DNA of 64,000 nt, from NCBI RefSeq assembly GCF_002571385.2, contig NW_019217928.1:78600-142599 (forward strand), read 5' to 3'. This DNA is from Stylophora pistillata. Lineage: Eukaryota. The translations under genes were made by a program, and so were the position numbers. Under the pieces are notes generated by a model. The model ran no database searches, was not told the origin of the DNA, and was given only the letters and a program-made list of their open reading frames with translations. Below are positions 14,601 through 53,300 of the stretch, one piece after another. Position 1 is the first letter of the stretch. Each line of letters starts with the position of its first letter.

Positions 14601-17600
14601 CAAGGGGTCAAATCAGGGAAATAATTAATACTTTAAAAAAAAATTCAATGACATTTTTGCAAGATCAGACACTAGTTGCTGCACAGTTCTGTGAGTGTGT
14701 ACTAGATGAAGACCTCTAATCTGTACAGTGTTGAATGTTTTGTCTTTGTTTATTCAACAGCTACAAAGAAGTTCTCTTCAGCAAGAGGATCTCACTGGTA
14801 TGTCACACCATAAAATTGAAGCAGATGACTTTCTTTCTGCTCAGTTTTCTTAAATGGTTCATTTGCCGAGAGAAGAGAAAAAAAAAACTAGATTTTTTAT
14901 TAGGGAAGCTGAAAGCAGGTGAACAAGTTAATTCCAGTTCATCTGTCAGATTCCCTACTTCATATTTACCCAGGTACAAGGAACTTGAAACAAGAATTCA
15001 TTATACAGTTGTGTGGTTAGTTCCCAGAGTTTTTATAACAGAGTGAGGCTCAGTTTGTAGACAACAAGGTTTTTATCAAAACAAGAGCACCCTTGGCCAC
15101 CACCCTTTTTAAAGGCTTACACCTGCAGCCATAGGTTGCAGTATAATTATGGCCTTTTTCAAGAAAAGCACAGAAAAATGTTAGTTAGAGAAAATCAGAG
15201 TATACTGTGTTTTGATGCTAAAACAAAAATTCTCAATATCTTCTCTTTACTTCTATAAGGATGTATACTTGAACAACACATAACTTTATATCTTTTTCAA
15301 TCTGTTTGTTTATAACAGAACAAAAAGCAGTACTGTCTGGGGAAGAACAAGAACGCAAGATTACAACTTATGAGGAGGCCATGAACAAGATAAAGGACAC
15401 AACAGGGGTGTCTGACATCAAGGAGGTGGTACAGCGTTTCCTGTCTCAAGGTGACACCCAGAAGCATTTGGACACACTCAAGATGAACAATGAAAAAATG
15501 CTTGTCAGACTTAAGGAGGAAAAGGTACCGCAGACTTAGTTGATTAATTTATGTCTTTATTTATTAATTTTCTAATAAATAGACAGGCTGGCGTAGTTCA
15601 GCTTTTTTTTGAGCTAGTTTAAATGGTGGCCTGTTTAAACAATGACTACCGGTATGCCAGACCATATGCTAAAAGAGATAGCTTTAACAGAAAAAATGTG
15701 TCAACTTCTTAATGGCATTGTTATTCATCGCTAATGGCATATCATGCTGCTTTCTTTAGGAAAAATTAAGAATGGAGTATGAGGAGATGAAGTATTCTGG
15801 AGAAGCCAAGTTGTCAAGGTAAAATAAAGCCAGCCAGTTCAAAATGTGCATAGAATGAAGCTTTTCTGAATCAGCACTTTCTGGTTTGATCCTCAAACTT
15901 CAACAATCTGAAGTTTGAGGATCAAGACTGTACACTAGTGAGGGCTCAACACTTGTACTAACGGTAGCCCCTTTGCTACAGACTAGTAGAACTTCAGTTT
16001 TGGTTAGTGGTTTTCGATTTCCACTAGCCAGTTCAGCTAGTAAACAAGGGCTGATAGTTTCTAAAGAAACTGTATGGGGCTGCGTCGGTGGGGGTAACGA
16101 AATAATTTGGATATATCAACAAAGTTGAAATGGTAAATTGGCCACCGTAACGATTACAAAAGCTGACGTTTCGAGCGTTAGCCCTTCATCGGAGCGAATA
16201 GAGGAATTGTGGGTTGTGTGTGCTTTCAAAGGCAGAAAATGGAGCAACGTTATTGGTTGAACATGGCAACGAGAAAAACAAGATTAAATTGAACGCTTTT
16301 CATTCCACTAATTTTTTCTTGTTTTTCTCGTTGCCATGTTCCCACCAATAACGTAGCTCCATTTTCTACCTTTAAAAGCACACACAACCCACAATTCCTC
16401 TATTCGCTCCGACGAAGGGCTAACGCTCGAAACGTCAGCTTTTGTAATGGTTACGGTGGCCAATTTACCATTTCAACTTTGTTGATATATCCAGCTTGTA
16501 AACAAACTGAAATTGTTGTAACATCTAAGTTGTGACAGCAGCCACTTAGCTAGTAAGTTGAAAAGTTAGTGTCGCGCCCTGCTGGTGATTGGTTGGTAGC
16601 CGGCGTGAACATTCCATTTAACCCTGTAACTCTTAAGATCTCATTTTCAATTCTCCCCTCTGGCTGCTGCTAATTTCCTTGTAAATAAGTTACGAGAATT
16701 CAGTGTTAGATCAAGAAAGAAACTTCTACCTAATAAGCTTGAGTATTCTCATTACCTTTTTGTTGGATAAAGTATGGATACTATTGGGAAAAGTTCCATT
16801 TTAATCACTTGTGAAAAGAGCCGGAGAACTCGCTTATGAGGTTAATTTCTAAGCTACTATAAACAGAAGTTTATATATATATTGTTTACAGTTAAGAACT
16901 ATGGTGGATACTTGACAGGGGATAACCGTCGTGCCTTTGTTTTTTATTTTCACAGTGGACAAAGAATGCTGGAAGAATTTCAGCAACGTCTCGCAAATGA
17001 AGAGAAACGGTGAGGGGAAACCCTCTTTTACTGTTGTTATTTTTTATTTCATTATCTTTTAAATACATATTTAATAATCAGGGCATGATGTTAAGAGTGT
17101 TAAGGGACAAACGCACCTCGATAGGTACGTTTGAAATATAATACACTTGAGCTCATTTTGTGGTTTGTTTCACTGTATCAGCTGCTTAGATGCAAAAGAC
17201 CGCCAAGAAAGAGCTAACAAGACTCTTGTCAATGTTAAAGCTGGAATTGAACATCTGGCTGATAAACTGCAACACCTGAAAGCGGTAAGAACAAACTGTA
17301 ACCAAGTCAGCTTCTAGGAAAAAATGTGAGCATATGAATCGTGTTTTTAGTGGGCACATAGCGGTTAGTAAACGTTACGTGTAAGTCTTAGTAATACTGT
17401 TGCCGGCTAAAACTTCAGTGGTCAGATTTCAGCGCTCAGTTTTAATTTCCCGCGCTTTCCCTTGTCCTTCATTCCATACTTTCCCGTTCTTTCCTCTTTT
17501 TTTTTGCGTTTTTCCGCGCCTGCCCCGTGACTGTTTGCGTTCTACCCGTTGAGTTTGACTCTTCTTCCTCTTAAAAAACCTGTACTATTCCCAATTATAT

Positions 17601-20600
17601 GGTAAAATCTTTTCAACATTTCTTCTCCTTATGAAGCTTCACGTGCCATTTCGTAAATGATCACGTGCTCTCGCGATTATCATCTGTTATGTGTCATTTT
17701 CTCCCTCCTCCTTTCTTCAGTTATTGCGAATGTTTCTCTCTTTGCCCTCTGCTTGTAGTGTTAGTGATAACGGATATTCAATGAGCCAAGCTGCTGAAAT
17801 TAACATCTTGTGCAATAACTAATGTAACAGTATTATGAATGAGGTGGTGTAATCATACTTCTTGCATATCTCGCCCCAAATCTGGAACCTCATATAAGTA
17901 CCCCTTGGCTAGTGCAGACTAGCGTAGCTAATTTGAAGTAGTAACTATTTTTTACTCATCCACTTTAGCCTAAGGGTCACGTACCGCAGGCTCAGTTGTC
18001 CCCAACCTCAGACGAGTACATCCTAGACTTACTTGGCACTTGCGAACAGAAGTTACTCAAACTGACCGACGACTTGGGTGGAAAAGATATAAGTGATGTT
18101 ATGAAAGAAATTGAGGATGCTGAGGTAAATGTAGCTTTATTTTGAAGCACATCTACACTTTTGGAAACCATTTTTAGATAGAAAAATAATGACCTGCAAC
18201 TGATTGAAAAAGCAGGTTAAACGGATTTGAATGTTTACTTTCTCTAAGATATTCGTGAAAGTGGACATCTTAGAAGTTTGGAAACCGAAGTAAACGAACG
18301 ATTTTTGCGATACTTTGGGCTTTTTTCGGTGAATGTTCGCGAGGTATACAGTTCTCGTATTTAGCTACCAATATGACTCAATTCAGTACATTTGACCGGA
18401 ATCCAGAGCTATCTGACATTTTCGAACAAAGAAGGAAAAAGGCGAGGCCGACAATTGAATGGAAATTATTGAAAACATTACGCTGGAGTTGTGCGCGAGA
18501 AGGATGCGCAAAATGATTCTAAGGAAGGACAAGAAAGGATCGCTAAGAAAGCTTTTCGATTCACTGTCATACAGGGAGCAATGAGAACGTAAGATTAAGA
18601 CAAACAATTTTTTAAGCAGGGGAAAACGCGATAGATCGAGTGGTGATTGGGTTGTTATTACAATTGTTCACAGCTAAGCCCTAAAGCCTCCAGAAATTGA
18701 GACTTATTTTACTACGCTTTATCGTGTTTATTCTGTGCTAGCCTAATTCTCCTAAGTAAATTGTACATACTGCTTGTTTTAATTCCTTGTGACCCTATAT
18801 GAATTATGACGAGTTGGAACCTTGTATTTCACATTAAATCTTACGTGATTTTAAACTTAGTTCTTCAGTTATCTCCATTTTCGGTCGCGCTTTTTTCTTT
18901 TTCTAAATTCAGTAGATAAAGGTGGTGGTAAGACGTGAGGAAATACATGACCTAACTGTGTGTGTGTGTTTTTTTTTTTTTTTGTCATACAGTTCCGCGC
19001 AACAATGGAGAATAAGTTACCACAGTTTAATACTCGAGTCAAGCTACCCACTACATCTGATCGAATGGCTGTTTATGACGGTAAGTAGGCAATCATGAAA
19101 CACGCTAACAAACGGTTGGTGGCGGTGGTAAGGTCACGGGTGTCGCCCTTAACACCCAAGGTTGCAATTCTCCATACTGTTCTCTATACTTTTCTAATGG
19201 TAATGACAAGGTGAATTTGATTAACAATCAGGAGGCCCTTGAGTGGGTGATCATTTCCTGTATTCTCGTAACCCAAATGTTTGATTCTTTAGTGGTAATG
19301 TATGGAGAAATTATATGCTAGTCACACCAAGGGGGTTCAAGGGTGAAGCCTGATTTATCAACTTCGTCATTTTCTATCTGTGTCTATATGTTCCATCTTA
19401 ATCCGTTCCTGTTCCTTCTTGGTGCCGAGCGTCAGCCCTTCGTCTTCCGCTCTGACAAAGGGAAAACGCTGGAAACGTCAGCTTTAATGCTCTTTATGGT
19501 GGCCCCTTAACATTATCAACTCAGTTGATAAAAGCAAATTATCTTGTTGACCCCTTAACTTCCATGGGTACCCAAGACAGACCTCTTTACATTATCAGTG
19601 TAATCCCAAGCAGGCAATTGGTGCGAATAAAGAAAAGTAATGATTAGGGAATTATTATTTGACCCAATAGCAAATTCTCCAAACTAATAACATAGAATTG
19701 TATGGCAGACAGTAAGGAGAATTACTCATGGGATCTTGGTAGTGAAAGGGTGAAATTCCCCACCAACGCATCACCAAAGTTTCTTTAGAAACTTCCCTCG
19801 CTGAATTGTTTTGCAGTCAGTTACAATCGACCCGAATCCTCTCCATCGTTAACCGTACTTATCCCTTCTTATTTATTAATTTTTGTTTTGTATTTTTCTA
19901 TCTTACCAAACAATTATTCTGTGGTTATTTTTTAAGCTGTGTTACTTCATTCCATCTTGAGAAATTCTTGGTCTTTCTTTGTGTTTGCCTTGTCTATGTC
20001 ATTCTATCGTACCCAAATCTTGTAACCCACAAGCGAATGACCTTACTCAAATTGTATTTTTTTAGTCATTTACAATCCGTCTAAATATTAAAGCATGCGC
20101 CTTACACCTTCTTTGATTCATTTTTCCCTCTTTTTTGTTTCTGTATGTTATCAAACCAATCTACTTGGTCATTTACAAACTGTGTTAATCGTGGGTTTTT
20201 TGTTTATATTCATTCTTGTTCTTCGTTCCTGCCTCGTTGTTGTTTGTCTACCTTAGCAAACTGTTTTTTTCAAGTCTTGTTTCCATTTACAAGCATTTCT
20301 CACGGCGACGAGGCTGAGTAGTACTTAAAACACCGACTTAAGAAAAAGTTGAGTCTGTGTTGCATGGAAAATGTTTCTCATAAGGGTTTCAAAGAATGGG
20401 ATATCGTGTTGCCTAGCGACCGCGAAGGAGTTAGATATCTGAAGTAGAGGCTGTACTCAAAATTATTCAAAGAATCATTTCTGCACGTAGTTCTCTTTTT
20501 ACAGGGATGATAAGTTCGTTGTATAGAGATGGTTTAGGTTTTGTCCATACCGTATCATTTATTAAATATTTGTGTACTTATTTCTTTTTTTTTTAGATGA

Positions 20601-20727
20601 CGAGGACAGCGGTGAAGATGAAGATGTTCTCTCTAGAAACGCTATTAAACGCTACTCACAGCAGCTCGTGGACTCAAAGACGAAGAAACATAAACCACGA
20701 AATAGAAAGAGAAAAACTAAACAATGA
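11686..20727 (+). CDS. ODAD3: Outer dynein arm docking complex subunit 3 (CCDC151)
   Basis: 13 phase-consistent exons: 11686-11752, 11984-12105, 12846-12926, 13028-13207, 13935-14285, 14761-14797, 15319-15524, 15760-15818, 16956-17009, 17182-17284, 17969-18124, 18992-19080, 20597-20727. [30 protein letters not shown] matches the CCDC151 N-terminal motif. Long coiled coil. AATAAA at 20836. Confidence 0.93.
12345..12478. mobile_element. Short palindromic MITE
   Basis: ~50-bp inverted arms TATGTTGTAGTTCAATTTTAT... / ...ATAAAATTGAACTACAACATA. Confidence 0.7.
16162..16195 (-). ncRNA. Minimal type I hammerhead ribozyme motif (PLE-associated)
   Basis: GCU-CCGAUGA-A-GGGC-UAAC-GCUC-GAAA-CGUC-AGC; U4 replaced by C. 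Confidence 0.7.
16406..16439 (+). ncRNA. Minimal type I hammerhead ribozyme motif (PLE-associated)
   Basis: GCU-CCGACGA-A-GGGC-UAAC-GCUC-GAAA-CGUC-AGC; U4 replaced by C. Confidence 0.7.
19432..19800 (+). mobile_element. Degenerate PLE pLTR fragment (decayed hammerhead 19449-19482) interrupted by a TTAA/piggyBac-like MITE (~19548-19752)
   Basis: GCTCTGACAAAGGGAAAACGCTGGAAACGTCAGC, then the same 3' tail (...CCCCACCAACGCA...GTTTCTTTAGAAACT) as the other PLE copies. Confidence 0.6.
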
Positions 20728-22447
20728 AACTGTTGTGGAAATCTAAAGATTGGTTACCATGTATCGGACTTTCGTAAAATTTGGCACAGTTTTGATAACG
20801 TATACAGTTATCTTGTATTCATGTATTATACCAGCAATAAAGTTAAGTTAGAGTTGAAGTTGGCAATTTTATCGGAGGGCCGTGTGACCGTATTTGCTTT
20901 TTTGTTTTGTTTCATTTTGAATAAATATGCTGGCATCTTTCGAGAGAGTTTAGATGTGACTGCCAACCGGCTTTAACAGCAGTGCCCTCCTTCTTTCGAG
21001 AAATACTCATTCGAGTGGCGAAAGAAAAGAAGACTTTTCAACATCCCGTCAAGCAATCATATGTAAAAAAAAAAAAACAATCGCCAAGTGATCGCTGGCG
21101 CTTTCCCGCGTTTCAGAAAGTTTGCTTGACCTAAACCTAAGTTCTTATTGGCTCCCTGTTTGACTTATCGAAAAGCTTTCTGAGTGGTCCGTTTTCTGGT
21201 GTCATATTGTGCATCCTTCTCGTCCAAGCGAGTTAGAGAGATTACATTCAAACTGGGGCCATTCTGACTACACTCAGGCGGAGGTACTCGATGTGAAAAG
21301 TTTATTTAGGAGGAGTCAGCCTGTCTTATAGTATACGCATCCTACTACAATCTGCAATGCACTGAATGTATTCACTGAAACTGAAGGGTTCTACAAAAAG
21401 ACCCTGAGCTAGGCCAGATACGAAAAACCACTAAAAAAGACTCCCTTTAGAAGAGGCCAAAAAATACGTGGAGACGTATTCCTTAACTAATACAGAGGCA
21501 CGGTACCCCGAGAGAAGGGGACTAGTCACACAGAAAAATCAATAAATGTAGTAATGTTTTACAAGGAGTTGTAAAACAAAATAACATCAAATAAGAATAA
21601 AGAAAGTGGTCAAACCTAAAACTGACCGACCCAGTATGACTTAATTTTCCAGCAAAACGCTCATTCGGAAACTACCATGATACCACGCGAACCTCTTCCA
21701 CGTGCCATCAGAATATTTATTTCTGACCAATTCGTTCCCATGTCAATCAAACGTTAGAAATTACATTTTTCCTCCATGTCTGGAATTCGTGAGAAAGGTT
21801 TTAGAATTTTTTTTAATCAGTACATAAGTGTGTTAGCAGTGGTTTCTGAAAATTGGTCTAGGTCAAACTCCAGAGCAGAACGCGAAAAATAAATTCCCTG
21901 AATAATTAATTTCGCGCTTTTTGACAAATGAAATTATGCGGAGTACCTTACCCTAAGAACTGGACTCCGCTTCCCGAAAAGAAGACAATTGTTATTTTCA
22001 AAACACATTCACCAACGATACAGAAGTACCGAGTAGAAAAACAAATTACCTGGGTCACATCCTAGCGGTTCGTTTCTTTCATATCAAAAGAGCCACACAA
22101 GTCGGAACATTTAGAACGTGAGAGTTTCTCAGGAAATCAAGAAATCCGGTCATTAATCATAGCCCCATTTGTAAATACCCTAGCGAAAGTCAGCGAGGAA
22201 ATTGCAAACACCGCCAATGCTCGAGATTATTCGACATCCGACTCCCGGAAATGCTGCCCGCAGCGTCGTGTTATTCCGCGAAATGCTAATAGATAATAGA
22301 AACCCAGGTTGCCATGCTAAATTTATATTTCGCTTCTCCCATTTCGGTCTCACGCCAAAATTAAACCTAAAATTCAGCCAAGATATCAGCTTTTATACAG
22401 CCTGCCGAACAACCAAGAGTGGCTAACTATCGAGGCAAACAATCCTC

Positions 22448-23473
22448 AATTTTTTTTAACGGATTAGTACTAATTTTGTTAGTAAGTTAAGCACATTAAA
22501 CTAAATTAAATAAGTAGGGAATATTAATTTTTGCCACTCTCAATTTAGTTTGATGGACACATTATTACGGGTCACTTAACATAGTGGCGATTTTTAAACG
22601 AAAATATAGTTTAAGCTATTTTTAGGAATAAATTTTCCCTTAAATAATTAGCGCGATAGCCACAAAAGACAGATGGCTCAATCAGCAACGTTGCTCTTAG
22701 CCAACTGTTTTATGGATAATAGTAATAATATGGATTGATTTCTGCCCGCCAATCGATATCTTTTCTTCCGAAAATTACCTGTGCTATCCTGTTTATCGTG
22801 AATTATGTGGTTGTTTGTGGTGGCTTCCAAGATTTGCTTATCAGCTTTGAAGTGTTCTGCTCTTGAGATTCAAAGTGCTTCAGCATTTCTCTAATTTTCT
22901 CGAGTCGTTCCAGAATTAGCTCTCACTGGAAGTTTCTGCAGGTTTTCAGTCGTGTCGTCTAAGTTTCTGATAAACTACAGGTCCGAAGTTAACACACACA
23001 GAAACAGAAGCTGACCCAAGGTTCAATGACTGATCGGTATAACTATGTCCTTTTTTGGGTTTCCTGTCCGCCCTTTCAGTTTTTTAAAACAGTATACGCT
23101 ATTGGCTTAGAGGTACTGTTGTTTATCTCTTGGCAAGTGCGTTTGTGTTGCAGGATGTTCGGAGATGGATATCTTTCCTAGCAAGCCAGAAAATGTCTAT
23201 AGCTAAGGTATTTAGAGGTTTATTTCAATATTGCATCTCACGATCGTCGGTAGAGTAAATTGTATTGAGCTGAAACAGCTAGCACCTACAATGACATACG
23301 AAGTATAATTTTTTTTAACGGATCAGTACTAATTTTGTTACTAAGTTAAGCACCTTAAACTAAATTAAATAAGAAGGGAATATTAATTTTTGCCACTCTC
23401 AATTTAGTTTGATGGACACATTATTACGGGTCACTTAACATAGTGGCGATTTTTAAACGAAAATATAGTTTAA
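22448..23473. repeat. 167-bp direct repeat pair (22448-22614 and 23307-23473) around ~690 bp of unique sequence
   Basis: Near-identical copies at offset 859. Confidence 0.85.
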
Positions 23474-25948
23474 ACACAAAATTTATTATGTGTTGAATCA
23501 AAATTCTAACAAATCCGAAACACCTAGCCAAGAGCTTCAAAGTAAGTCACTTAAACTGCAATTGAACTCATCTCCGTTTATGACAAAATTCCTCGCGGAG
23601 CAAATTTCCAATAACTCTGTGTAGCTAGTCCTCGTCACATGATTGCGAAACGGTTCTTCGCCTTTGCAACCGGTATTTTGGTGATAAGAGCGAAGACATT
23701 CATTAGTTTGTAAGCAACTTTATTAGGGCTTTGCACGATCTTATTCCGTACGAACGACTGTGAGCTAGCCAGGCACTTCTACACTTCTACTTCACTTCTA
23801 CACTTCTACACTTCAACACTTCTACACTTCTACACAGGCACTTCTTCACTTCTACGTGAGGGTTTGAGTTAGAAAATGATTTAAAACTCTGGAAAATTCG
23901 GGTGGTAGGTTTATGTGGCGTCCGTCTGATGAGCTTGTTTTCCCTTTCTGTCTGGTCCCAACAAATGAGATTAGTCTGATCTGCATTTAGCCCACGAAGC
24001 CTATTAGACGACTCGTGACCGACTATTTATACACAGATACGGCTTAGTTCGTTCCCCTGATTAGGCTAAATTGAATCTGCTAGGAAAAGACTAAATGCTC
24101 TCTTTTACTCGAATTCTACAGGCTGAAATACGTGCTGTAGACACTTGATACTCGGAAAGAAGCTGATAATTTCATTTGCTGAACTAAAAAAACGTGCTTG
24201 TCACTGCACAACATGAAAGATCCACCCAAATTTTGTGCTAAGTAAGAATGAGCATGCATGAGTTTATGAGATGTTTGGTAAAACTGTGGCATATCAAAAC
24301 AAATAAATTGGCCTTCTTGGTAAACAAGCGTGGCATTACGCCGACAAATCGGAGTTTAGGCTTATAATCGGATGAGCTATAGCTAATTGGAAACTTCATT
24401 GCTAGAACCTTAGGGATGTCGGTAGACGTAGTGTGGGCCCAAATTATGAAATAATAGAGGGGGAGTTTTCAGTTTTTACAGTCACTGCGGAAAAGATCCC
24501 CTTTGAAACAAGGAGACAAATTTTGTCGTTCATAACCCCAGCTTCGTTTAAACCGCAAAGGAAAAGACAGACGTTGGTAATGATGAACAAAGTAGCGAGG
24601 GTCTCACATCTGAACTCTGGCAAGGGAAACAGATTTGTGCCCCGTAACTTATATCAAAACAGTGGCGGGATAAAACGTTTTGGATCACCGGTAAATGTTC
24701 TCTCAGAGAGGCTAATCTCGGCGAATTTCAATAATTACTAGTAGTTAAAAACACTCTTCTCGAGAACGTCTTCTTTATGGTAGAGTGGTAGCCTGTTAAT
24801 ATAGGTAATCGCAAGGGGCCGAGTAAAATTATGGATTAATATCACGCGTGTTTTCAGAAGTTGCTGAAAATGCCCGAGTCGAGGGGAAAATTACTGAATT
24901 TCTGAATGCGCTCTTCGGTAATCAGTCATAGGAAGCCATTTAAAGTTGACAGAGAATCAATGGCCACAAACGCACGAATGCGCTGAATGAAATTTTATAT
25001 TTTTGCACAAAGATACCAGGACTTTGGATAGGCTTTTGATTTTAAATATCTCTCCAGTGATGCCTGCATTACTTTCAGGCAGTCGGGCTCGTATTCATCC
25101 CCGTTTTCTTTTCATAAATCGGCATAAAACTGCACCAGTGTTCGGTCGAGGACATAGCTCTCGTACTCTTCTAAATTTGCTTGGAAGTTTCTTTCATTTT
25201 TTTTTTCCTATTTAACACCTTGTGTTGTCTTGTAGGGCTGGAACGATGCAGCAAAGCAAACAGCGTTATTCAACTCAGTAATTCAACATACGCAGAGACT
25301 GAGTTAGCATGTTCCATGATCTTGAAATTGTCGAAGTAGTCAATTATAAAGGGGAAAAGTGTTCGCAAAGTGAACTTGATTACGTGCCAAAATCTGCTGG
25401 TTCAAAGGCACTAATTGGTGATGCGAAATGACAAAAAAAAATCCTAATACTTCTAAAAGAGCGAAAGGGTGACATTCTATGGTACGCTAACATTTCAATG
25501 CCATAATAAGAAGGGTCAGAACATGAAAACACGAGAATTAGTACAAAGTACATTGTGCTATCACTACAACCGTCTCCGCCGGCTAATAGGGAAAAGGGGC
25601 CGGTTTTGTTGTTATGGTTTTTCTTTTAGCAGTTGTCTTAAACCCAGCGTTAGAGGTTAATAGTTCTCTCAGATGATAGGGTCAATAAAACTCTTTACCT
25701 TGAACACAACAACATCGTAACAATGATAACATCTTACTTTGTCGGGCGAGTGCCGAACTCAACATTTATCATTTGTCCGGATCAAATGATGTACAAACAA
25801 GATGCTTTCGACATAACTGATCCAAGCATTCAACAAATATACATGAAATAGATATATATGAACTGCGGTTATGAAACGTATATGTGCACGATCCTTCGCA
25901 GTAAAGCACTATTTAAGCAATAGTGAAAATCAGACCTGAAAAAAATTC

Positions 25949-26021
25949 AGGCCTGTACGGGATTCGAACCACTGACCTCTGCGATACTAGTGCAGCGCTC
26001 TACCAATTGAGCTAACAAGCC
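25949..26021 (-). tRNA. tRNA-Thr(AGT)-like unit 1 (probable pseudo/SINE-type)
   Basis: Acceptor stem GGCTTGT/ACAGGCC, D arm GCTC/GAGC, anticodon loop CT-AGT-AT, TTCGAAT loop. Two T-stem mismatches and one anticodon-stem mismatch. T7 run 3 nt downstream. Confidence 0.6.
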
Positions 26022-26193
26022 AACTGGGAGCAGGCCATCAAATTAATTCGACATAAACCCGTAGATGATAAATCAAACAACAAACATATGAAATACATAT
26101 ATATGAACTGCGGTTATGAAACGTATATGTGCACGATCCTTCGCAGTAAAGCACTATTTAAGCAATAGTGAAAATCAGACCTGAAAAAAATTC

Positions 26194-26266
26194 AGGCCTG
26201 TACGGGATTCGAACCACTGACCTCTGCGATACTAGTGCAGCGCTCTACCAATTGAGCTAACAAGCC
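26194..26266 (-). tRNA. tRNA-Thr(AGT)-like unit 2
   Basis: Identical to unit 1. Confidence 0.6.
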
Positions 26267-26438
26267 AACTGGGAGCAGGCCATCAAATTAATTCGACATA
26301 AACCCGTAGATGATAAATCAAACAACAAACATATGAAATACATATATATGAACTGCGGTTATGAAACGTATATGTGCACGATCCTTCGCAGTAAAGCACT
26401 ATTTAAGCAATAGTGAAAATCAGACCTGAAAAAAATTC

Positions 26439-26511
26439 AGGCCTGTACGGGACTCGAACCACTGACCTCTGCGATACTAGTGCAGCGCTCTACCAATTGA
26501 GCTAACAAGCC
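26439..26511 (-). tRNA. tRNA-Thr(AGT)-like unit 3
   Basis: As unit 1, with T-loop TTCGAGT. Confidence 0.6.
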
Positions 26512-26683
26512 AACTGGGAGCAGGCCATCAAATTAATTCGACATAAACCCGTAGATGATAAATCAAACAACAAACATATGAAATACATATATATGAACTG
26601 CGGTTATGAAACGTATATGTGCACGATCCTTCGCAGTAAAGCACTATTTAAGCAATAGTGAAAATCAGACCTGAAAAAAATTC

Positions 26684-26756
26684 AGGCCTGTACGGGATTC
26701 GAACCACTGACCTCTGCGATACTAGTGCAGCGCTCTACCAATTGAGCTAACAAGCC
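26684..26756 (-). tRNA. tRNA-Thr(AGT)-like unit 4
   Basis: Identical to unit 1. Confidence 0.6.
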
Positions 26757-26928
26757 AACTGGGAGCAGGCCATCAAATTAATTCGACATAAACCCGTAGA
26801 TGATAAATCAAACAACAAACATATGAAATACATATATATGAACTGCGGTTATGAAACGTATATGTGCACGATCCTTCGCAGTAAAGCACTATTTAAGCAA
26901 TAGTGAAAATCAGACCTGAAAAAAATTC

Positions 26929-27001
26929 AGGCCTGTACGGGATTCGAACCACTGACCTCTGCGATACTAGTGCAGCGCTCTACCAATTGAGCTAACAAGC
27001 C
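26929..27001 (-). tRNA. tRNA-Thr(AGT)-like unit 5
   Basis: Identical to unit 1. Confidence 0.6.
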
Positions 27002-27174
27002 AACTGGGAGCAGGCCATCAAATTAATTCGACATAAACCCGTAGATGATAAATCAAACAACAAATATATATGAAATACATATATATGAACTGCGGTCATA
27101 TTAATTCGACATAAACCCGTAGATTTATCATCTACGGGTTTATGTCGAATTAATTTGATGGCCTGCTCCCAGTT

Positions 27175-27247
27175 GGCTTGTTAGCTCAATTGGTAGAGCG
27201 CTGCACTAGTATCGCAGAGGTCAGTGGTTCGAATCCCGTACAGGCCT
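27175..27247 (+). tRNA. tRNA-Thr(AGT)-like unit 6
   Basis: Same sequence on the plus strand. Confidence 0.6.
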
Positions 27248-27421
27248 GAATTTTTTTCAGGTCTGATTTTCACTATTGCTTAAATAGTGCTTTACTGCGA
27301 AGGATCGTGCACATATACGTTTCATAACCGCAGTTCATATATATGTATTTCATATATATTTGTTGTTTGATTTATCATCTACGGGTTTATGTCGAATTAA
27401 TTTGATGGCCTGCTCCCAGTT

Positions 27422-27494
27422 GGCTTGTTAGCTCAATTGGTAGAGCGCTGCACTAGTATCGCAGAGGTCAGTGGTTCGAATCCCGTACAGGCCT
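27422..27494 (+). tRNA. tRNA-Thr(AGT)-like unit 7
   Basis: Same sequence on the plus strand. Confidence 0.6.
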
Positions 27495-27666
27495 GAATTT
27501 TTTTCAGGTCTGATTTTCACTATTGCTTAAATAGTGCTTTACTGCGAAGGATCGTGCACATATACGTTTCATAACCGCAGTTCATATATATGTATTTCAT
27601 ATGTTTGTTGTTTGATTTATCATCTACGGGTTTATGTCGAATTAATTTGATGGCCTGCTCCCAGTT

Positions 27667-27739
27667 GGCTTGTTAGCTCAATTGGTAGAGCGCTGCACTA
27701 GTATCGCAGAGGTCAGTGGTTCGAATCCCGTACAGGCCT
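27667..27739 (+). tRNA. tRNA-Thr(AGT)-like unit 8
   Basis: Same sequence on the plus strand. Confidence 0.6.
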
Positions 27740-27911
27740 GAATTTTTTTCAGGTCTGATTTTCACTATTGCTTAAATAGTGCTTTACTGCGAAGGATCGT
27801 GCACATATACGTTTCATAACCGCAGTTCATATATATGTATTTCATATGTTTGTTGTTTGATTTATCATCTACGGGTTTATGTCGAATTAATTTGATGGCC
27901 TGCTCCCAGTT

Positions 27912-27984
27912 GGCTTGTTAGCTCAATTGGTAGAGCGCTGCACTAGTATCGCAGAGGTCAGTGGTTCGAATCCCGTACAGGCCT
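27912..27984 (+). tRNA. tRNA-Thr(AGT)-like unit 9
   Basis: Same sequence on the plus strand. Confidence 0.6.
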
Positions 27985-29714
27985 GAATTTTTTTCAGGTC
28001 TGATTTTCACTATTGCTTAAATAGTGCTTTACTGCGAAGGATCGTGCACATATATGATCCAAGCATTGTTGACTTGTAACATAGGGCTGACTACAACCAT
28101 CTCTCCCGGCTAATAGGGAAAAGGGGCCGGTTTTGTTGTTATTTTTTTTAGCAGTTGTCTCAAACCTAGCGTTAGATTTTAATAGTTCTCTTAGATGATA
28201 GGGTTGATAAAACTCTTTACCTTGAACACAACAACATCGTATCAAGGATAACATCTTACCTTGTCGGGCGAGTGCCGAACTCAACATTTATCATTTGTCC
28301 GGATCAAATGATGTACAAACGATATGCTTTCGACATAACTGATCCAAGCATTGTGCTGACTGATCCAAGCATAAGGCTGACTTCAACCATCTCCGCCGGC
28401 TAATAGGGAAAAGAGGCCGGTTTCGTTGTTATTTTTTTTTAGCAGTTGTCTTAAACCTAGCGTTAGGTTGATAAAAATCTTTACCTTGAACACAACAACA
28501 TCGTAATAATGATAACATCTTACTTTGTCGGGCGAGTGCCGAACTCAACATTTATCATTTATCATTTGTCCCGATCAAATGATGTACAAACAAGATGCTT
28601 TCGACATAACTGATCCAAGCATTTTGGAGGACACTTGTAAGATATGGCCGACTTGATGTAGGGCATAGGAAGACATGGACTCTGTTTCGCTTGTATTTGG
28701 ACTAAAAAAATGTGTGTCAGTGTAAAGTTTTATCTTTTATTTATTTATTTTTTTCATTCAAATTGTCTCAGTTCTCCCACGCTGGCGACAAATCAGTTTA
28801 AACTCAATTCTACTTTGGGTTGAGAATTTCGTAGAATACCTGTTTCCCTGGAGCTTTCTCTCCTTCTATTTGGCACCTAAATATAAACCCAGCAACACAA
28901 AGTAAAATAACTTAAACAAAAAAACAACTCCGAGTAGCTGAATTTTGCGTGAGTGGTTGCGAGATTCGATGACCTGTTGGTTAGACTTTCGCGAAAAAAC
29001 ACTTAGAAATAATGGTGAATTAAATTAAATTTAGAGTCCAGGTGAACAACTTAAAAGAGTGAAAGGTACTTCAATAGGTTTAGAGAGATCTCTGATGGTG
29101 ATTTATCAAACTAGAAGGATGTGGGACTGACGGAAACTCTGATCTGAATCTTTTATTAGGATTCCAGCTTCAGACCTTCATTACCACCTTTCGTTGTTAG
29201 GACATGCTACCGGCCTTCAATTTATTGACTTGTAAATTTCCTCTTTTAACGTGGTAGCAAGAAATCACATTATTGAGAAATGATATCAAAACAAGATCAA
29301 GATCTTTTAAGAGTTTGTTTTGTCTTGTATAGAATTGATCTCTCTATTACAAAGTTATTCGTAAATCAAAAACAGTTCCAACACCTCAACCGAGTATGTA
29401 TTTTTTGGTTTGCCCTTTATTTAACAGATGTGATGTTGCAATCAGCACAGTCTTCTCTTAAGATTTAAAACATGGAAATTGCTGACTTTCTTCATTCCCT
29501 CTGCCTTACCCGGACCAACAAGTGGAGGACGGCTGTACTTTTTTTTTTTTTTGCCCCGTTTGAACAGAAGAAAAGGATATTTACGTTGAAGAGACAACAC
29601 GGATAAACAAAGAATTGCATCCCCATAAACTGTATTTTATTCATACATGATGTAGGAATAATCGTCATAACAAGATCATTTCATACCTATGATGTTAAAT
29701 TATTCTCAGTCATA

Positions 29715-41696: not shown

Positions 41697-42141
41697 TTTC
41701 ACTCTCCACGTACTGCCGCGTCCGAAATATGAACAGCTTTTAGAAAACAAATGTTTTTAAAGTGCACTTAAATGGCCATAAACGGTTTTATTTGTTTTTG
41801 ACTGCCAGTTGTAATAGGGCACTAATGGCATGCCATTTTTTGTTCATCAAGAAAACGTCACGTAAACGTTGATAACACATCAAAATGGCAAATTGTACAT
41901 TGATGTACCTCGACTCCGCCTGATAGTTCGAAGACAAATTCCAGCCGAAGTTTTTCCCAGCATCGATTAATTTCTCAACATTGTGTTCATGCTTGTAATT
42001 TTGATACATGGATGCAATTCATTTTCACTGATGAATTTGGTGAAAACACAGGTGTGTAAACAGAACAGTCCGAAAGTATACGGAACGATTCCATTTAGAT
42101 TTAATTCTGTAGGAGAAATTTCCACCTAACATTCAATTTCA

Positions 42142-43278: not shown

Positions 43279-43398
43279 TCAGTTTCACGCGAAAACCTCT
43301 ATAGTAGGAAACGATTTGTGCAACATCCGTTTGTCACGTCTAATTTGACCACAGGTGGCCCAAGCTCTGTCACAGGCTCTTTCACAGTGAATAATTAA

Positions 43399-43826
43399 AG
43401 AGTTTGTATAGTGGTATAGTTGGACTTGCTTTTGAGCTCCGTAAATGTAAAGTTGTGTGAAATAATCAAAGAAATAAAGTCTTACCTTCATAGAGAGAAG
43501 TCTTTGTTGTTCTCCTCGCGATTTGAGGCCGTTTTGATGTGTTTTAGCTCTACGCCCTAAATTACCGTGCATAAATTACCGTGCATAAACACGGTAATTT
43601 TTAATTAATTACCGTGCATAAACACGGTAATTTTTAATTAATTACCGTGCATAAACACGGTAATTTAGGGCGTCAAGCTAAAACACATCAAAACGGCCTC
43701 AAATCGCGAGGAGAACAACAAAGACTTCTCTCTATGAAGGTAAGACTTTATTTCTTTGATTATTTCACACAACTTTACATTTACGGAGCTCAAAAGCAAG
43801 TCCAACTAAACCACTATACAAACTCT
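43399..43826. mobile_element. Kolobok-type palindromic MITE A
   Basis: TTAA|AG...CT|TTAA, ~170-bp TIRs; the centre is tandem 33-bp hairpins AATTACCGTGCATAAACACGGTAATT. Confidence 0.8.
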
Positions 43827-43836
43827 TTAAAGTGCA

Positions 43837-46745: not shown

Positions 46746-46798
46746 ACTCAAATAATACATCTATATTTTTCTGAACAATTTTAAGCAACTCCATCTCC

Positions 46799-49700
46799 CT
46801 ATTCACTCTGCTGCTTTGTGCGCATTTCTAATCGTGTTTCATACTTTCTCACTAAAGTTTCTTTTGTTTCTCCATCCATTTTCCCATTCTCAATATCATG
46901 AATAATAGCTTTCAATTTGTCTGCTTCATCCCCATGTAAAACTTCCAGAGCTTCATAAAGAACATCTACATCCAACCAGTCAGCCTTTTTTCTTGCATTC
47001 TGTTCAGATGCTGCCAATTTGACTGCAAAACTGAACCTTGCTCCTACAAAATTGAAAAGAAAAAAATTCAAGCAATGTCATGACAATATCAACTTCATAA
47101 AAGGACATTTAGAAGGTTTCACTGAGAATTACAGCCTAACGGATGTGGCAGAACAAGATATCTAATTGGCAGAATAATAGCTCAGCACTTGCATTTTAAA
47201 ACTCCGTACATTTCTTAGCTTCCTCTGCCAAACAACGATGTGAAATCACCAAAATTTATGTTGTCCAAAAATGTAAACACCAACTCCAAATTATTTAAGT
47301 TTAAATTTTTAACCCCCCCTCACACAGGTAATGCTCAAGTTGAGGTGTGGCACTGTGAGAAACAGTAAACATGTCCAGTCATTCAAAAAATTCTTACTTT
47401 AAATTTAAATTCTGTTTTTTTTTCAGTTTCATTTTCAGTTTTCTTTGCCTTTGTTGTCCTGACTGGTTAAGGTCCCCATTTTCTCAAGAGCACAACACAT
47501 TAAAGTCCCTACGACACCTATTTTTTTAGTATTATAAAAATAGAAGTATGTAGAGGGTGTCTGGTAAGTTTTGTGGGTGATTCTGAAGATGCATCTTTGT
47601 TATTTTATGAGGCGATAAAAGTCCGAAATTGTATTGAACTTAGGCTCCCTGTATCTCTTTGGCCGCGTTTAAGAGTACTGGAACCTGTCACGTAACAGTA
47701 GTCACACCAAGTTTACCAATGTAATCTATTGCATAGATTACTCCGCCAATGTAATCTATTGCATAACTTGCACTTATTGCAAAAAGATTTACATCGGTGA
47801 AACAGGCAGAAGACTAGGTGACCGATTCCGAGAACACCTTTGCGACATGGAGAAGAATGACAAGGACACATCGAAACCAGTTGCTAGACGTTTTAATTTA
47901 CCTAATCATTCTAAGCAACATATGGCAATCTGCGGTCTTTCCTTACACTTAGGTAGCATGGAAAGCCGTAAAACTCTTGAACAAAAGCTCATCTTTCAAA
48001 CAGGTATCAACGAACACTTTTCATTCCACTAATTTATTCGTGTTTTTCTTGTTGCCATGTTCCCACCAATCACGTAGCTCCATTTCTGCCTTTAAATGCA
48101 CACACAACCCTCAATTCCTCTATTCGCTCCAATGAAGGGCTAACGCTCGAAACGTCAGCTTTTATAATCGTAATGGTGGCCAATTTACTATTTCAACTTT
48201 GTTGATATATTCAAATTATTTCGTTACCCCCACCGATGCAGCCCCAAACAGTTTCTTTAGAAACTATCAGCCTTTATTCAAGTTTATCAAAGACTGAAGC
48301 AAAGTGAGTGTGGAAGCTACTGTTTACAATCTTTTTAGCCAAAAAATGCCATTTCGATGTGTAGTTTGGGGTTTTTCCAATACCCCTGACTTGATGAAGA
48401 ATACTTCTCTCCACACGATTCCTACTGTGACGTCATGGCGCCCAGTCCCTCGTTGCTCGGCCAGACATTTTATCTGCGGATTATAGAGCTTGATAAAAAA
48501 TTCAGAAAAGAGCAAAATGCCACAAATGTTGCAAAAACATATTTCAGAGTCATATTTTGATGTAGAATAGAAAAAAAAAAAATAAGTGTCATAGGCACTT
48601 TAACCTTACCATGTCTCCAACCCGTAGCTCTCACCCTGTAGCCCAATGCACCATTAAATCACTTAGTCTGTTCTATGTATCTCTCAGTAATAAATTCCCA
48701 AAAAGCTTTAGTTAAGTTCATAGCCTGTGTAATTCTGGTGAATTTATTCCATACCTTCTATAAGTAGTGGGGGTGGTCGCGCACTGTGCGGAATTGATCC
48801 ATGGAAAATGGCAACACGTCCATATCTTGGCCTCACTGCAAATATCACCTCATTTCCCTCCTCATCATCAAAGAAGACTGTTTCACCATGATGGTTTGCA
48901 GTCCAGTCTTGATTGAGATAAATCAGCAATGTGAATTCATTTTCATTAAATTCACTATCTATGTGAATTGTAGTTGTGTCTGTGGCTTGAATATTATTGC
49001 ATCCAATATCATAAGGAAAATAACCATCCTTTCCAGAAACAAAGGTCACAATCTGACTGACCACATTCCATAACGAGGTTTGTACAAAGTCATCAATTTC
49101 AAATGCCATGATCCACTGCACTTGATCTGTGCTGTCCAGACCAGCTGCATTGTCACTGTATCCGTTGTTTTCAACTGTTTGCCTCAAAGCATCAAGTTCT
49201 TTGGGAGGAAGAATACCATCCAAAACAACAATGGAAAGGCCATTGCTGGAGGTGAAATTCTTAGTGACAAAATCCTGAATATCCAGGGGTCTATCAGTGG
49301 TTGTGTCAGTTTTGGTCAAAAGTTTAAAGCTAGGGAAAACCTCTAGAGGATTAAAATCTCTCCTTGAGGTATTGTCAGGTAACTTTTCTTTTATTTGAGA
49401 ATGCCTAAAGTCATCTGAAATTGAAAAGTGAATTTTTATAAAATACAATCTCTCAGACAAGTCTATCGCTGGAGGCTTGATAACATGTTCTAGAGAGGCA
49501 TGGAGAATTACGAGCCTTCCTCTTTTCGGGTATATAGCTTTCATGATTTCATCCCCGTTGTATACAATCAGCTCACCGTAAGCATTGCGTCTCCAGTTCT
49601 GTACAAGAAAAATTATAGCGATATAGGTGGTGTTGACATTGTTGTCATTTTCAGTAACTTTTTCACTACAGGTATGACCAGCTCTGATGTTGATTTTTCC

Positions 49701-50072
49701 CTCTAAAGACAAAATTCTACTTTCTCCCTTTATTCCAAAGTGCGAAGATAGTGTGTCTGCAACTTTTCTCCAAGTAGAAAAGCTCTTAAAATTATGAGAT
49801 GTCAGATTAGCGGACCAGCTGTAGCAGGCTTTAGTGGACAAATGCTTCTTTCGTCCAGCACTCGCCAAATTATCTTCACTGGGCTGAAATTTCCACATCG
49901 TTTCATCTTGGCCTAGCAAAGATTTCATTTCCCAAATTTCACTCTCAGTAAATAAATCGTCCTTGATCCAAACGTCTTTCAAGTTAAGAGAGTTAGATTG
50001 GTCGATCGTGGAAACGAAAATAAAAATTAAGGAATACACGGCTGATGAGCTAGTCTCTGTGTAAAGGTGCAT
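46799..50072 (-). CDS. Putative secreted/lumenal tandem 2OG-Fe(II) oxygenase (prolyl-hydroxylase-like), 520 aa
   Basis: Exons 48755-50072 and 46799-47043 (phase 1, G|GA). Hydrophobic N-terminus. C-terminal domain has H-x-D (TIHIDS), YLNQDW..GETVFF, distal His (IPHSARPP) and 2OG-binding Arg (GARFSFAVK). The N-terminal domain repeats the fold. Confidence 0.85.
47504..48599. mobile_element. Kolobok-type MITE C with THAP remnant, in the oxygenase intron
   Basis: TTAA|AGTCCCTACGACACCTATTTTT ... AAAAATAAGTGTCATAGGCACT|TTAA; MPFRCVVWGFSNTPDLMKNTSLHTIP at ~48346. Confidence 0.75.
47720..48278 (+). mobile_element. 5'-truncated Penelope-like element: GIY-YIG endonuclease fragment plus pLTR with mutated hammerhead (48126-48159)
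   Basis: Encodes ANVIYCITCTYCKKIYIGETGRRLGDRFREHL...KPVARRFNLPNHS...RKTLEQKLIFQ. TSD CAAGTTTA(C/T)CAA at 47708-47719 and 48279-48290. Confidence 0.9.
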
Positions 50073-50308
50073 TTTTTAAATATTTCCTTAATTTCTTGAT
50101 GGTTTGCCGATTGTCTTGGCACTTGCTATCTGCCCTATTCTAACAGAAGATTTTAGTAGAAAAGTTATGGATTTTTTGCTCATATCTTGAAAGGGTACAA
50201 GTCACTACACGCTTATCGCGCGCGTTTCTCTCCAAAGACGACTTTGTAACCGCTACCCATTGCTTAGCATCCTCCCGATCCTTCCCAGTCTGTTCGAACG
50301 TGACGACC
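50073..50308. promoter_or_regulatory. Compact bidirectional promoter between oxygenase and CDC73
   Basis: Divergent ATGs separated by 236 bp; CpG-richer stretch (TCGCGCGCG). Confidence 0.6.
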
Positions 50309-53300
50309 ATGGCGGACCCTTTGTCGCTTCTTCGACAGTACAACATAAACAAGAAAGAGATCATAGAAAGGTCGGGTGAAATCATATTTGACGAATTCTC
50401 ATTTCCAAGAACAGCAAAGACGAACTATGTTATTTTCAAGTAAGTGGATTTGTGCCTCTTAGTTGTGGAAGCTGTCGTGTTTTCCGTGAACTTTCTCTTT
50501 CTTAAATTCGTTTAATTTGGCACTTGTTGTTGCTTGTATATAACATGTCATTTGACTTTATTGTCTAGATCCCAGCCTAAGGAATACTACACTTTGGAGT
50601 CGCTGTTGTTTCTGCTGAAAAATGTGCATTTATCTCATCCAATTTACGTCCAGCGGGCAGCGGTGAGAAACTAACAGCTTGCACACTCAAATTTCCTTAT
50701 TTAAACATATGTGCGACTGCAGAATCAGGGTGATTATATCGGTGCCAGATGATGCCTTTTAATGATAAAATATTATGAATATGTTATACTTTAACTTGAT
50801 GAAGCAACTCAACTGAATTTGTTTTTTTATTTGTTTTTGTCGTTTTTTCTCACAATGTTTAGTGTTAGAAAAGCATCACTGATAAAGCTAGGGATTTCCT
50901 ACCTACCAGCTAGCACTTCTAAGATATTTCTTTATTTTCCTCTAACTTTCTTTTTCCTTTCATGTTGGCAGGGTACAAAGATACCAGTGGTGAGATTGCC
51001 TGACAGAAAGGTTTGTTTATTTTCTTAATTCTTACTATTTGTATGGTTAATTTTCCATTTTTAAAAGAAAAGTGATGGTGCATCATGATGTGATTGCAGA
51101 AGCTGTAAATACTGACATGCACCTGTCTCATATATTAGTTGTAATTCAGCTCCCTGGTCTTCATTCTCCGAGTCACAAAGCTGATTCTGACTCAGCTTAG
51201 TTCTACAATCAGGGCTTGATAGTATGACAGTAATTGTAACTAACTAGCCACAGACTAGTAGAAATTCAGGTTTGGCTTGTGGTTTTCAATTTCTACTAGC
51301 CAATTTGGCTAGTAAACAAACTGAAATTGTTGTAACATCTAAGTTGTCACCAACCACCTGGATAATAAGTTAAAAAGTTAGTGTCGAGCCGTGAAAAGGG
51401 GTATCTCCACAAGCATGGACCTGTTATCGTCCTCGATGATGTGTTTCTTTCAAACTTTAAATACTCAGCTTTACCTGGCAGTATTGGTGGCATAAAACAA
51501 AAGGGCTCAAGCACTTTTCAAGTTAGTTACAGACCAAAGCTTCAATTTGCAAAAACATTGTAACAAGAGCTGGAGCTCAGCAAAGATCATTGACTATCGT
51601 GATCTTAAATCAAAGGGGCCATTTGTTGTCTGATGACACATTAGAATTTTCTAAATTTTAAATTCAATGAATGAAATCAATGAATATTATATGAGAAGTC
51701 TTCCAGTTGTCACAATAGAACTGGATTTCCACTGTCATGTTTTTGTCCAGGCATGGGAATGTGCTTGGACTAGATATTGTTGTATTTCCACTTCCATTAT
51801 TTCCCTAAGGTGTCAACATGCACTTTACGCATAACATAATAACGAGAATGCAGAGGAAAGTTCACTAGTCTTCAACTTCACACACGGTCCTTTGTTTTTG
51901 CTCATAAAAACAAAACATAGGATATTCATTTTTTTGCAGCAGTGGAAGTTGATAACATCTTTACTGATGTTTTAGATATAGTAAAACTTACGTGAACTAG
52001 GGACTTACCAAATATGCTGATCAAATTGCAAGGATTACTAGTGATTTTAAAAGGGATGTAGTAATTCAACATATATAAACATACAGAGCAATGATTGTCT
52101 TAAATGACCTAATGTACAGTTAACACATCTATAAATTTCAGGTCATATCAACTAAGTTGAAATTGTGAATTGGCCACTGTAAAGAGTTAAAAAGCTGACG
52201 TTTTGAGTGTTAGCCCTTTATCAGTCCTACGGTGGCCAATTTACAATTTCAACCTAGTTGATATTACCAAATTACCTTGTTACCCCCACCGACTCAGCAC
52301 CACAGTTTCTTTAGAAACTTACCCATTTATAAATTTCAGGGATTACTCTGCTATCTCAATGGAGAGACAGGTTGGTGTACTTAGCAACAGCATTGCAATC
52401 ACTTGCATGTAATTCATGTATCAGAATTAAGTGTTTGTTTTCACCCACTGTGACTGCTCCTGGTTAGCGCATGTTTTAGAGCTATGTGGGATGAAAAGGG
52501 TTCAAGGTTTAAGCCCCAGACCAGACCAAAACTCGGGGTCTTAAAATAACTAAAGAGAATATGCTGCCTTTGCTATGACATCTGTTAATGGTTGGACATT
52601 CTAGTCTTCTTCGATAAGGATGAAAAACCTAGGCCATCTCCTGCATCTTCTCTGTACCAGTTAGCAGGGTGGTTAAGAAACCTACATACTTATCGCAAAG
52701 AGTGGGGAATGTACAGTAGCTCTCAGTGTTGTGGTCTGGCCTTGGCTCTGAAATTGGGGGAATCTGCAAAAATTTCCTTTAAAGAATGGTAAACTGCTCC
52801 ATGCACTCTGGCCAAAGTCCCCATTAAGTGTTGTAAAGTGCCACGAGCTATAGAATATGGGGCTACAGAAATCTTCATTGTAATTATTATTATTATCGCA
52901 GTACTGAACTTCTAGATGCTGAGCTTACTAAAAAAAAGAACATGGGGTGTAACAAATGTTCCCACTGGGATTATAACTTTCTATACTATACAACGTGCAG
53001 AAATGGTGGGAAACTAATAACACTAATTAAGACAGCTCGTGTTCCTTTAAAAACCTAATTTAAAAACGACATCCTAACATTTGCTAGAAAGACTGGCCAC
53101 TGGTTACTATCAATTTCACTAACTATTTACAATCTATCTTAAAGTCAATTAGACAGCAACCTTGAATGTCCAGGCGATGTGGAGCATACTTGAAATGACC
53201 GATCTCTGCATTAGCCTTTAGATTTCTCTGCATCTAGAACCTAGGAGCATCCTGAGGGGTCTTTCCATGTCCACACTCCAGCCTCCCAACACATCTATGA

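Follow-up and report, generated by a model that had tools for sequence, protein, structure and literature searches.

A tRNA-like tandem repeat family in the genome of the coral Stylophora pistillata is probably mobilised by Penelope-like elements

In a 64,000-nucleotide stretch of the Stylophora pistillata genome (contig NW_019217928.1, positions 78,600 to 142,599; hereafter the window, numbered from its first letter), several inserts of a Penelope-like element (PLE) lie in the same neighbourhood as a back-to-back array of non-coding, 245-base tandem units, each of which carries an internal tRNA look-alike. This tRNA-like family, which counts at least 8,538 units (exact matches to a 27-letter motif) in the gapped 398-Mb assembly that was searched genome-wide, seems likely to be a parasite of Penelope enzymes, copied by them in trans, while the PLE inserts of the window itself appear to be truncated copies of a Neptune-type PLE; judging from sequence comparison, the probability of this reading is put at roughly 0.85. 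Mobilisation by a PLE is well supported, because the length of the target duplications, the target flanks, the insertion geometry and the use of two fixed start points all match those of PLEs and do not match those of the long interspersed nuclear elements (LINEs) sampled. The insertions of the window are listed below, where E2 stands for the far 3' end of an element and E1 for its inner start point.

16034..16047, no strand: PLE insert 1, left target duplication, repeated on the right at 16492-16505 (14 bp, 1 mismatch)
16048..16290, minus: antisense arm of PLE insert 1, beginning at E2
16291..16493, plus: sense arm of PLE insert 1, stopping at E1, about 60 nt short of the far end
19439..19793, plus: old fragment of a PLE pseudo-long terminal repeat (pLTR), split by another repeat
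25818..25830, no strand: tRNA-like array, left target duplication, repeated on the right at 28055-28067 (13 bp, exact)
25831..27099, minus: tRNA-like array, antisense arm made of five units and ending outwards at E2 (unit position 27)
27100..27121, minus: short inverted piece at the head-to-head junction of the array, possibly mis-assembled
27122..28054, plus: tRNA-like array, sense arm made of 3.8 units and ending outwards at E1 (unit position 226)
27422..27494, plus: tRNA-like module of one unit (ARAGORN; Rfam RF00005, 48.9 bits)
47720..48278, plus: PLE insert 2, 5'-truncated, with the GIY-YIG C-terminus to 48032, then pLTR and tail, ending at E2
52143..52327, no strand: PLE insert 3, antisense arm from E1 and sense arm to E2 (the opposite assignment to insert 1)
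59184..59238, minus: fourth PLE insert, a single short arm from E1

A first-pass annotation of this DNA had described target duplications of 12-13 bp around the array and three PLE inserts, and a direct-repeat search located all four, its 12-bp call near 16 kb being the 14 bp given here less the 2 bp that the duplication shares with the element end. The antisense-left, sense-right arrangement which it had assigned to PLE inserts 1 and 3 and to the array was recovered as well, and the GIY-YIG fragment that it had reported within insert 2 scored above the cut-off (PF01541, E 1e-5), whereas the fourth insert and the old pLTR fragment had been overlooked. The remaining duplications are 47708-47719/48279-48290 for the sense-only insert 2 (12 bp, 1 mismatch), 52130-52142/52328-52340 for insert 3 (13 bp, exact) and 59171-59183/59239-59251 for the fourth (13 bp, 1 mismatch), and the chance level for repeats of at least 11 bp is below 1% (4/786 pairings in which the left flank came from one insert and the right flank from another). 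The duplications of PLE insert 1 and of the array can be regarded as confirmed, because paralogues of the empty site within the window hold the target once: the host repeat of insert 1 runs unbroken at 9605, 10261 and 51307, and the 13 bases repeated on either side of the array are present once in the sister host units at 28340 and 28611. The array consists of five antisense and four sense units, 245 and 247 bp long and mixed, each with its tRNA-like module, and an open reading frame (ORF) scan found no frame of 90 aa inside it. Its unit count and inner junction might be mis-assembled, since the junction (27094-27130) recurs identically at loci L001-L004, accompanied there by a divergent arm and a gap.

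Inverted 5'-truncated arms, a tail at one end only and a target duplication are all features of PLEs and were all found in the window inserts, which are ordinary truncated copies of an endonuclease-bearing PLE, of Neptune type (family F1) by the look of their sequence. The endonuclease of this family is C-terminal to the reverse transcriptase (RT), as a gap-free frame of 493 aa has the RT motif YIDD upstream of the GIY-YIG domain; no complete PLE ORF was seen, all eleven long-frame loci examined holding assembly gaps. A CX2-5CxxC linker ahead of the endonuclease is described as the mark of the Neptune/Nematis clade (PMC8557442); it is present in families F1, F2, F3, F5 and F8 and missing from F4, F6 and F7, and the labels "Neptune-type" and "Poseidon-type" used here rest on this motif. 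Copies of the window family stop either at E2 or 58 nt upstream of it, at E1, and this spacing corresponds to the published PLE "tail", since the latter is bounded by two RT start sites in an account that also has both target strands cut and extended and predicts a dimer (PMC11167929); the tail is often confined to a single end (PMC8557442, PMC3846280). Both arms of insert 1 hold a minimal type I hammerhead core with a 4-bp stem II (at about 16169-16192 in the antisense arm and at 16409-16432 in the sense arm, where U4 is a C), the core is degenerate and went unmatched in inserts 2 and 3, and an Rfam scan gave no hammerhead match. The structure of the F1 pLTR is ordinary (folding z -0.4), and insert 3 belongs to an older subfamily (83% to young copies). 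In insert 2, the 5' end (47720-47748) was seen to be a short fold-back built from sequence of the element itself, and 19 bp are absent near the end of its ORF.

Across the genome, subfamily A, the young one, was examined at 50 loci, of which 39 are distinct and 27 can be read at both flanks, and subfamily B at 30, of which 24 are distinct and 17 can be so read. Loci having an assembly gap or edge at a flank were excluded, and 44 resolvable tRNA-like inserts remained. Thirty-five of these 44, from the two subfamilies, show the back-to-back geometry, and among them 32 are mixed-end, 2 same-end (both without a duplication) and 1 broken (p 4e-9 for mixed-end pairing at 32/33, de-duplication having removed one same-end case). 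A flanking repeat of at least 11 bp accompanies 30/44 inserts as opposed to 2/251 mismatched pairings, and loci L039 and L043 add two 13-bp duplications by eye; the target reads approximately AAY, 12 bases, RTT, and is AT-rich. The outer ends cluster at unit position ~228 and at ~30 of the following unit, 53 of the 55 hand-listed ends falling in two windows 47 nt apart that were chosen post hoc, with a subfamily A query that started at position 31; the subfamily B query excluded the position-31 end, yet showed the same two-end pattern. Inner ends, by contrast, are uniform across the unit (n=52, Kolmogorov-Smirnov p 0.80). Beside these regularities, a stutter of the last element bases between an E1 end and the target duplication was noticed at L043:3555-3575, resembling telomerase-style re-copying at initiation, and the left arm of the insert at L039 holds a piece of a young CR1/L2-type LINE (2275-2933) with no duplication and short homology at both ends.

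For comparison, seven PLE families (F1-F7) were sampled via PF01541 and DNA searches, an eighth (F8) being without end or duplication data, and LINEs were drawn from PF00078: two families with an APE endonuclease, which we take by their motifs to be CR1/L2-like, plus an RTE-like and a Tx1-like family. All seven PLE families are two-ended, their back-to-back inserts with intact ends being mixed in 46/50 cases and same-end in 4, so that the rule of one start site per end holds for 78/84 back-to-back inserts when the tRNA-like family and the seven PLE families are taken together. Tail lengths are 58 nt in F1, ~90 in F2, ~97 in F3, ~24 in F4, ~90 in F5, ~37 in F6 and ~40 in F7, and, when scored by the profile of the tRNA-like family, the target flanks of both PLE groups beat random ones (p 8e-5 and 2e-6). 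None of the 38 CR1/L2 and RTE control copies is inverted and none has a repeat of at least 11 bp (0/38 each; a wider search produced one distant 12-mer), and LINE copies end in microsatellite or poly(A) tails, the 13 Tx1-like copies in poly(A) where readable. Compared genome-wide, the duplication lengths and targets of the tRNA-like family thus match those of PLEs and not those of any LINE clade among the families sampled. The likeness goes further than the first-pass annotation had described, the two fixed start points, with one used at each end, being a sharper common trait that it had not named. PLE and tRNA-like inserts are often adjoining or nested (L089, L345, L503, L059, L028), which agrees with a shared target preference. 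As for targets more generally, the Neptune-type families F3 and F5 mostly hit (TA)n, and two other Neptune-type families do not.

These regularities suggest a way in which the inserts might arise. A Penelope protein, as the dimer predicted in PMC11167929, would cut both strands of the target 12-13 bases apart; each cut end would prime reverse transcription at one of two internal start sites, one per strand, of a multimeric or circular unit RNA, and the two cDNAs would stop at random places and then be joined head to head, PLE action in trans having been described before (PMC3846280). The template must be multimeric, circular or composed of two molecules, because the arms of an insert overlap in sequence, and variants private to an insert and common to both of its arms (L015, L031, L042, and 11/12 units of L047) favour one template per insert, subject to three counter-examples and an assembly caveat. 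One tRNA-like unit at L028:1293-2113 carries 7 A>G changes (sense strand) among 8, ADAR-editing-like, which suggests an edited RNA stage.

The likeliest role of the tRNA module, going by models of its folding, is in RNA processing and not as a head of the short interspersed nuclear element (SINE) type. The module at 27422-27494 has an A box (27429-27440), a B box (27473-27483), both of them intact and of the internal RNA polymerase III (Pol III) kind, and a self-complementary hexamer in its anticodon loop, followed 3' by a hairpin with a seven-T run (27498-27504). The hexamer is self-complementary in 171/177 counted tRNA-like arms (mostly of subfamily A; one unrelated row of 178 excluded), the variants ACTAGT, ACTGGT and ACCGGT all retain self-pairing, and the doubly changed, compensatory one has 23 exact matches; among the first 100 of the 8,538 matches, the ones listed, 98 loops were CTAG, 1 CCGG and 1 CGAG, and the 20 ACCGGT rows come from a targeted search, so that neither set gives loop-type frequencies. 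The unit is strongly structured (folding z -4.9) and the minimum fold of a lone unit is not a cloverleaf; two neighbouring modules, when left free, are predicted to fold into a hybrid with 3-nt bulges (-104 kcal/mol vs -72 for two forced cloverleaves), in which a C32-G pair is positioned as in an intron-containing pre-tRNA. Neighbouring modules would accordingly pair in the manner of such a pre-tRNA via their self-complementary anticodon loops, TSEN would cut out exactly one repeat unit and RtcB would close the circle (the weakest step), with tRNA splicing standing in for the hammerhead of a retrozyme. An RNA circle made by tRNA splicing is a plausible template in such a model; the complete scenario of ribozyme-replacing Penelope parasites, whose tRNA mimics would be paired, excised as one unit by TSEN, closed by RtcB and copied as a circle by a Poseidon-type dimer, is offered as a tentative one that may well turn out otherwise.

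Three other explanations of the arrays deserve to be weighed. A tRNA-derived SINE moved by a LINE, through twin priming of the L1/Tx1 kind or by an RTE or CR1/L2 element, its PLE likeness being coincidental, would fit the intact A and B boxes, the presence of Tx1-type and RTE elements in the genome and the fact that L1 twin priming yields 5' inversions, but in the family at hand the tRNA is internal, there is neither a tail nor a LINE-like 3' end, and the two arms have sequence in common and each terminate at a fixed site; as 0/38 LINE copies were inverted or had a long duplication, and the Tx1 and RTE families found amount to 13-14 copies with poly(A) or (CA)n tails, this explanation is largely refuted for the sampled families and seems improbable overall. 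Still more improbable is that the arrays are fold-back or satellite structures formed at the DNA level, or artefacts of assembly: the scaffolds are short-read ones with gaps in many arrays and an identical inner junction was met at two loci, yet the short gap-free inserts L045, L046 and L049 show the ends and duplications seen in the other inserts, and the ends of the arrays cannot be terminal inverted repeats, because they stop at different points. The back-to-back geometry is, moreover, not a product of assembly, because the flank-to-arm joints of L039 and of one PLE insert occur in contigs of two other samples; no empty alleles of the window region 15500-28700 or of L039 were among the joints listed from public runs, which is not evidence of fixation.

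A far more serious contender, to which about even odds might be given, retains Penelope enzymes as the movers and has them copy linear read-through transcripts of the arrays, the tRNA being a promoter or passenger and no circle being involved. It needs no extra step, tandem transcripts already serve as templates for PLEs (PMC11167929), and the intact A/B boxes together with the mixture of 245- and 247-bp units in the window array sit well with it. The uniform 5' ends, none of them preferred, speak against it, as do the near-identical units within an insert and the compensatory change in the anticodon loop, which would be unexpected of a promoter, and the seven-T run argues against Pol III multimers.

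A number of observations weigh against Penelope parasitism and the splicing of tRNA mimics and have to be set against the evidence above. The modal duplication is 12 bp in the tRNA-like family and 13 in that of the window (p 0.06-0.07), and the two families disagree in the base that is duplicated first (A vs T, p 0.001, in part a matter of pairing with the template). The tRNA-like unit has no sequence similarity to any of 8 PLE 3' regions, its 47-nt tail exactly equals no sampled PLE tail, and in none of the 9/129 tRNA-like clusters that join PLE and tRNA-like DNA does a duplication surround the whole. Naiad and Hydra PLEs lie outside the sample, RTE is represented by 6 resolvable copies, and the Tx1-type copies were read by eye and unscored. 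Some variants are confined to one arm (L022, L036, L037), and the A>G excess is not significant once the L028 unit is set aside (9 vs 6, p 0.12) and is absent from subfamily B and from PLE copies. As regards the module, the seven-T run would stop Pol III before both start sites, leaving the source transcript unexplained (the run lies upstream of both, which rules out a plain product of Pol III as the template); slipped-register folding is possible for any tandem RNA; and the central helix of subfamily A has 6 bp vs the canonical 4, an over-tight helix being known to lower tRNA splicing (PMC6614914).

The proposal of the first-pass annotation that a PLE lineage mobilises the tRNA-like RNA is thus supported by the insertion anatomy, but the PLE of the window is not the best match in modal length. 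The modes are 12 bp for the tRNA-like family (14/30), 13 for F1 (14/31), 11 for F2 (3/4) and 12 for the linker-less F4/F6/F7 (9/17), and, in tests of "12 or less" with small samples and uncorrected p values, the tRNA-like family vs F1 gave p 0.07, vs Poseidon-like families p 0.76, and Poseidon-like families vs F1 p 0.03; pairing with element ends blurs all such lengths by 1-4 bases. Non-inverted inserts have a duplication in 15/43 cases for F1 as opposed to 0/9 for the tRNA-like family (p 0.046, likewise uncorrected and from small samples), non-inverted F6 copies (0/15) being unused here as they often stop at the end of the reference. The partner is, on this showing, somewhat more likely to be a Poseidon-type family than the Neptune-type one of the window, and F6, which is young (97-99%, 511 candidates), is the leading candidate, with a chance that falls a little short of even. 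That the partner is instead F1, the one-base difference in length stemming from the RNA template, is rather doubtful: among the young families seen, F1 ranks first in number (4,016 first-look candidates), its duplication lengths overlap those of the tRNA-like family in distribution (Mann-Whitney p 0.45), flank scores fail to separate it from Poseidon-type families (p 0.89) and the window array itself has a 13-bp duplication, as in the F1 mode, whereas that mode differs from the 12 of both the tRNA-like family and F4/F6/F7, duplications are frequent around its non-inverted inserts and lacking around the tRNA-like ones, and the only contiguous back-to-back joint of unlike arms involves the Poseidon-type F4. 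A PLE family outside the sample is an equally doubtful, if conceivable, partner.

That joint, at L424:1288-1717, is the best candidate for a chimeric insert, running gap-free from an antisense tRNA-like arm to a sense F4 arm that ends at E2; its left outer end is hidden by an assembly gap and the joint is single-copy. Chimeric PLE/tRNA-like inserts, which had been thought worth looking for, could be verified at none of the 129 tRNA-like clusters. L080 and L091 had seemed chimeric, but their joints are interrupted by an assembly gap of one letter and they lack a clean duplication. At L089 a PLE is nested in a tRNA-like unit, at L077 and L028 separate insertions lie side by side, and the best reading of L039 is that a LINE entered the left arm at a later time. 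L110:1497-2709 proved to be one PLE insert with a 12-bp duplication and ~200 bp of captured DNA, in which a (TTA)n run and a tRNA-like fragment of greater age were recognised. A motif past the inner start point that F1 and subfamily A seemed, by eye, to share is not kept in subfamily B.

Elsewhere in the window, two adjoining long inverted repeats (43395-43830 and 43837-45318, with arms of 175 and 679 bp at 98-99%) might be a fold-back DNA transposon or an assembly artefact; the spacer of the second, from 44529, starts MPTKCVVEGCSN, which we take, by eye, to be THAP-domain-like. There are three dispersed non-coding repeats, the one hosting PLE insert 1 (9460-9759, 10116-10415, 15957-16583 and 51162-51461), one that makes an 86-bp tandem (56375-56903, 61400-61604 and 19167-19325) and a third at 5677-5993 and 54097-54412. 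Long single-exon ORFs lie on the minus strand at 31451-32704, 40371-41756 and 48744-50075, two of them resembling, by eye, G-protein-coupled receptors and one a 2-oxoglutarate/iron dioxygenase.

PLE integration is poorly known (one in vitro study), and the end-pairing rule and the 11-13-bp duplications would provide testable constraints on it; a 245-nt non-coding substrate unrelated to any pLTR would show what a PLE enzyme recognises, and duplication length is a possible means of matching non-autonomous families to their partners. In practical terms, coral annotation gains false tRNA-Thr calls by the thousand from this family, and the circle step, if true, would be a new route to circular retroposon RNA. 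New here are the setting of the family against seven PLE families and four of LINEs, the statistics on one start site per end and the hint as to the partner.

Among known systems, tRNA-derived SINEs are non-autonomous retroposons with a tRNA-like sequence that includes A and B boxes, and the present family shares those boxes, but its tRNA is internal, its insertion tandem and inverted and its ends of the PLE type; 5' ends uniform over the unit leave no room for a tRNA head at a fixed 5' end, and neither a poly(A) or microsatellite tail nor a LINE-like 3' end was found in the family. A PLE insertion signature without coding capacity, as expected of a PLE-dependent non-autonomous element, was on the other hand found in it. 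The window inserts resemble endonuclease-bearing PLEs (PMC8557442, PMC11167929, PMC3846280) in having an RT with a C-terminal GIY-YIG domain, a pLTR with a minimal hammerhead, an inverted 5'-truncated arm, a one-end tail and a short target duplication; the tails found here span ~24-97 nt, depending on the family, while the published 30-40 bp is narrower, and duplication length looks family-specific (11, 12 or 13 bp). Non-autonomous PLEs of Chlamys such as MRC1 (PMC8557442) are likewise non-coding, multicopy head-to-tail and PLE-moved, but generally resemble the 3' end of their partner, whereas the tRNA-like unit resembles that of none of 8 families and has a tRNA mimic. Helenus and Ajax (PMC10886601) also bear small RNAs, but are non-autonomous long terminal repeat (LTR) elements that depend on LTR elements. 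No tRNA-bearing, PLE-dependent family was found described in the literature, as judged mostly from titles and abstract openings, with Repbase and Dfam outside the scope.

There is also a likeness to animal non-LTR retrozymes (PMC7229834; bioRxiv 10.64898/2026.07.22.740005), which are tandem non-coding units of 150-450 bp, occur in corals, have duplications longer than 4 bp and have had a dependence on PLEs proposed (PMC7229834) and argued (bioRxiv 10.64898/2026.07.22.740005) for them; the main text of the latter never uses the word tRNA. The present family has a tRNA-like module in place of the hammerhead and no pLTR similarity: dimers of subfamilies A and B showed no hammerhead core on either strand, Rfam gave none, and a comparison with 8 PLE families returned only adjoining or nested insertions, because of which the family, working like a retrozyme, is not filed as one. 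Its predicted bulge-helix-bulge-like fold with a C-G proximal pair is, finally, like that of tRNA intronic circular RNAs (PMC6614914), which are made by TSEN and RtcB, the difference being that the "intron" would here be the whole unit between neighbouring copies.

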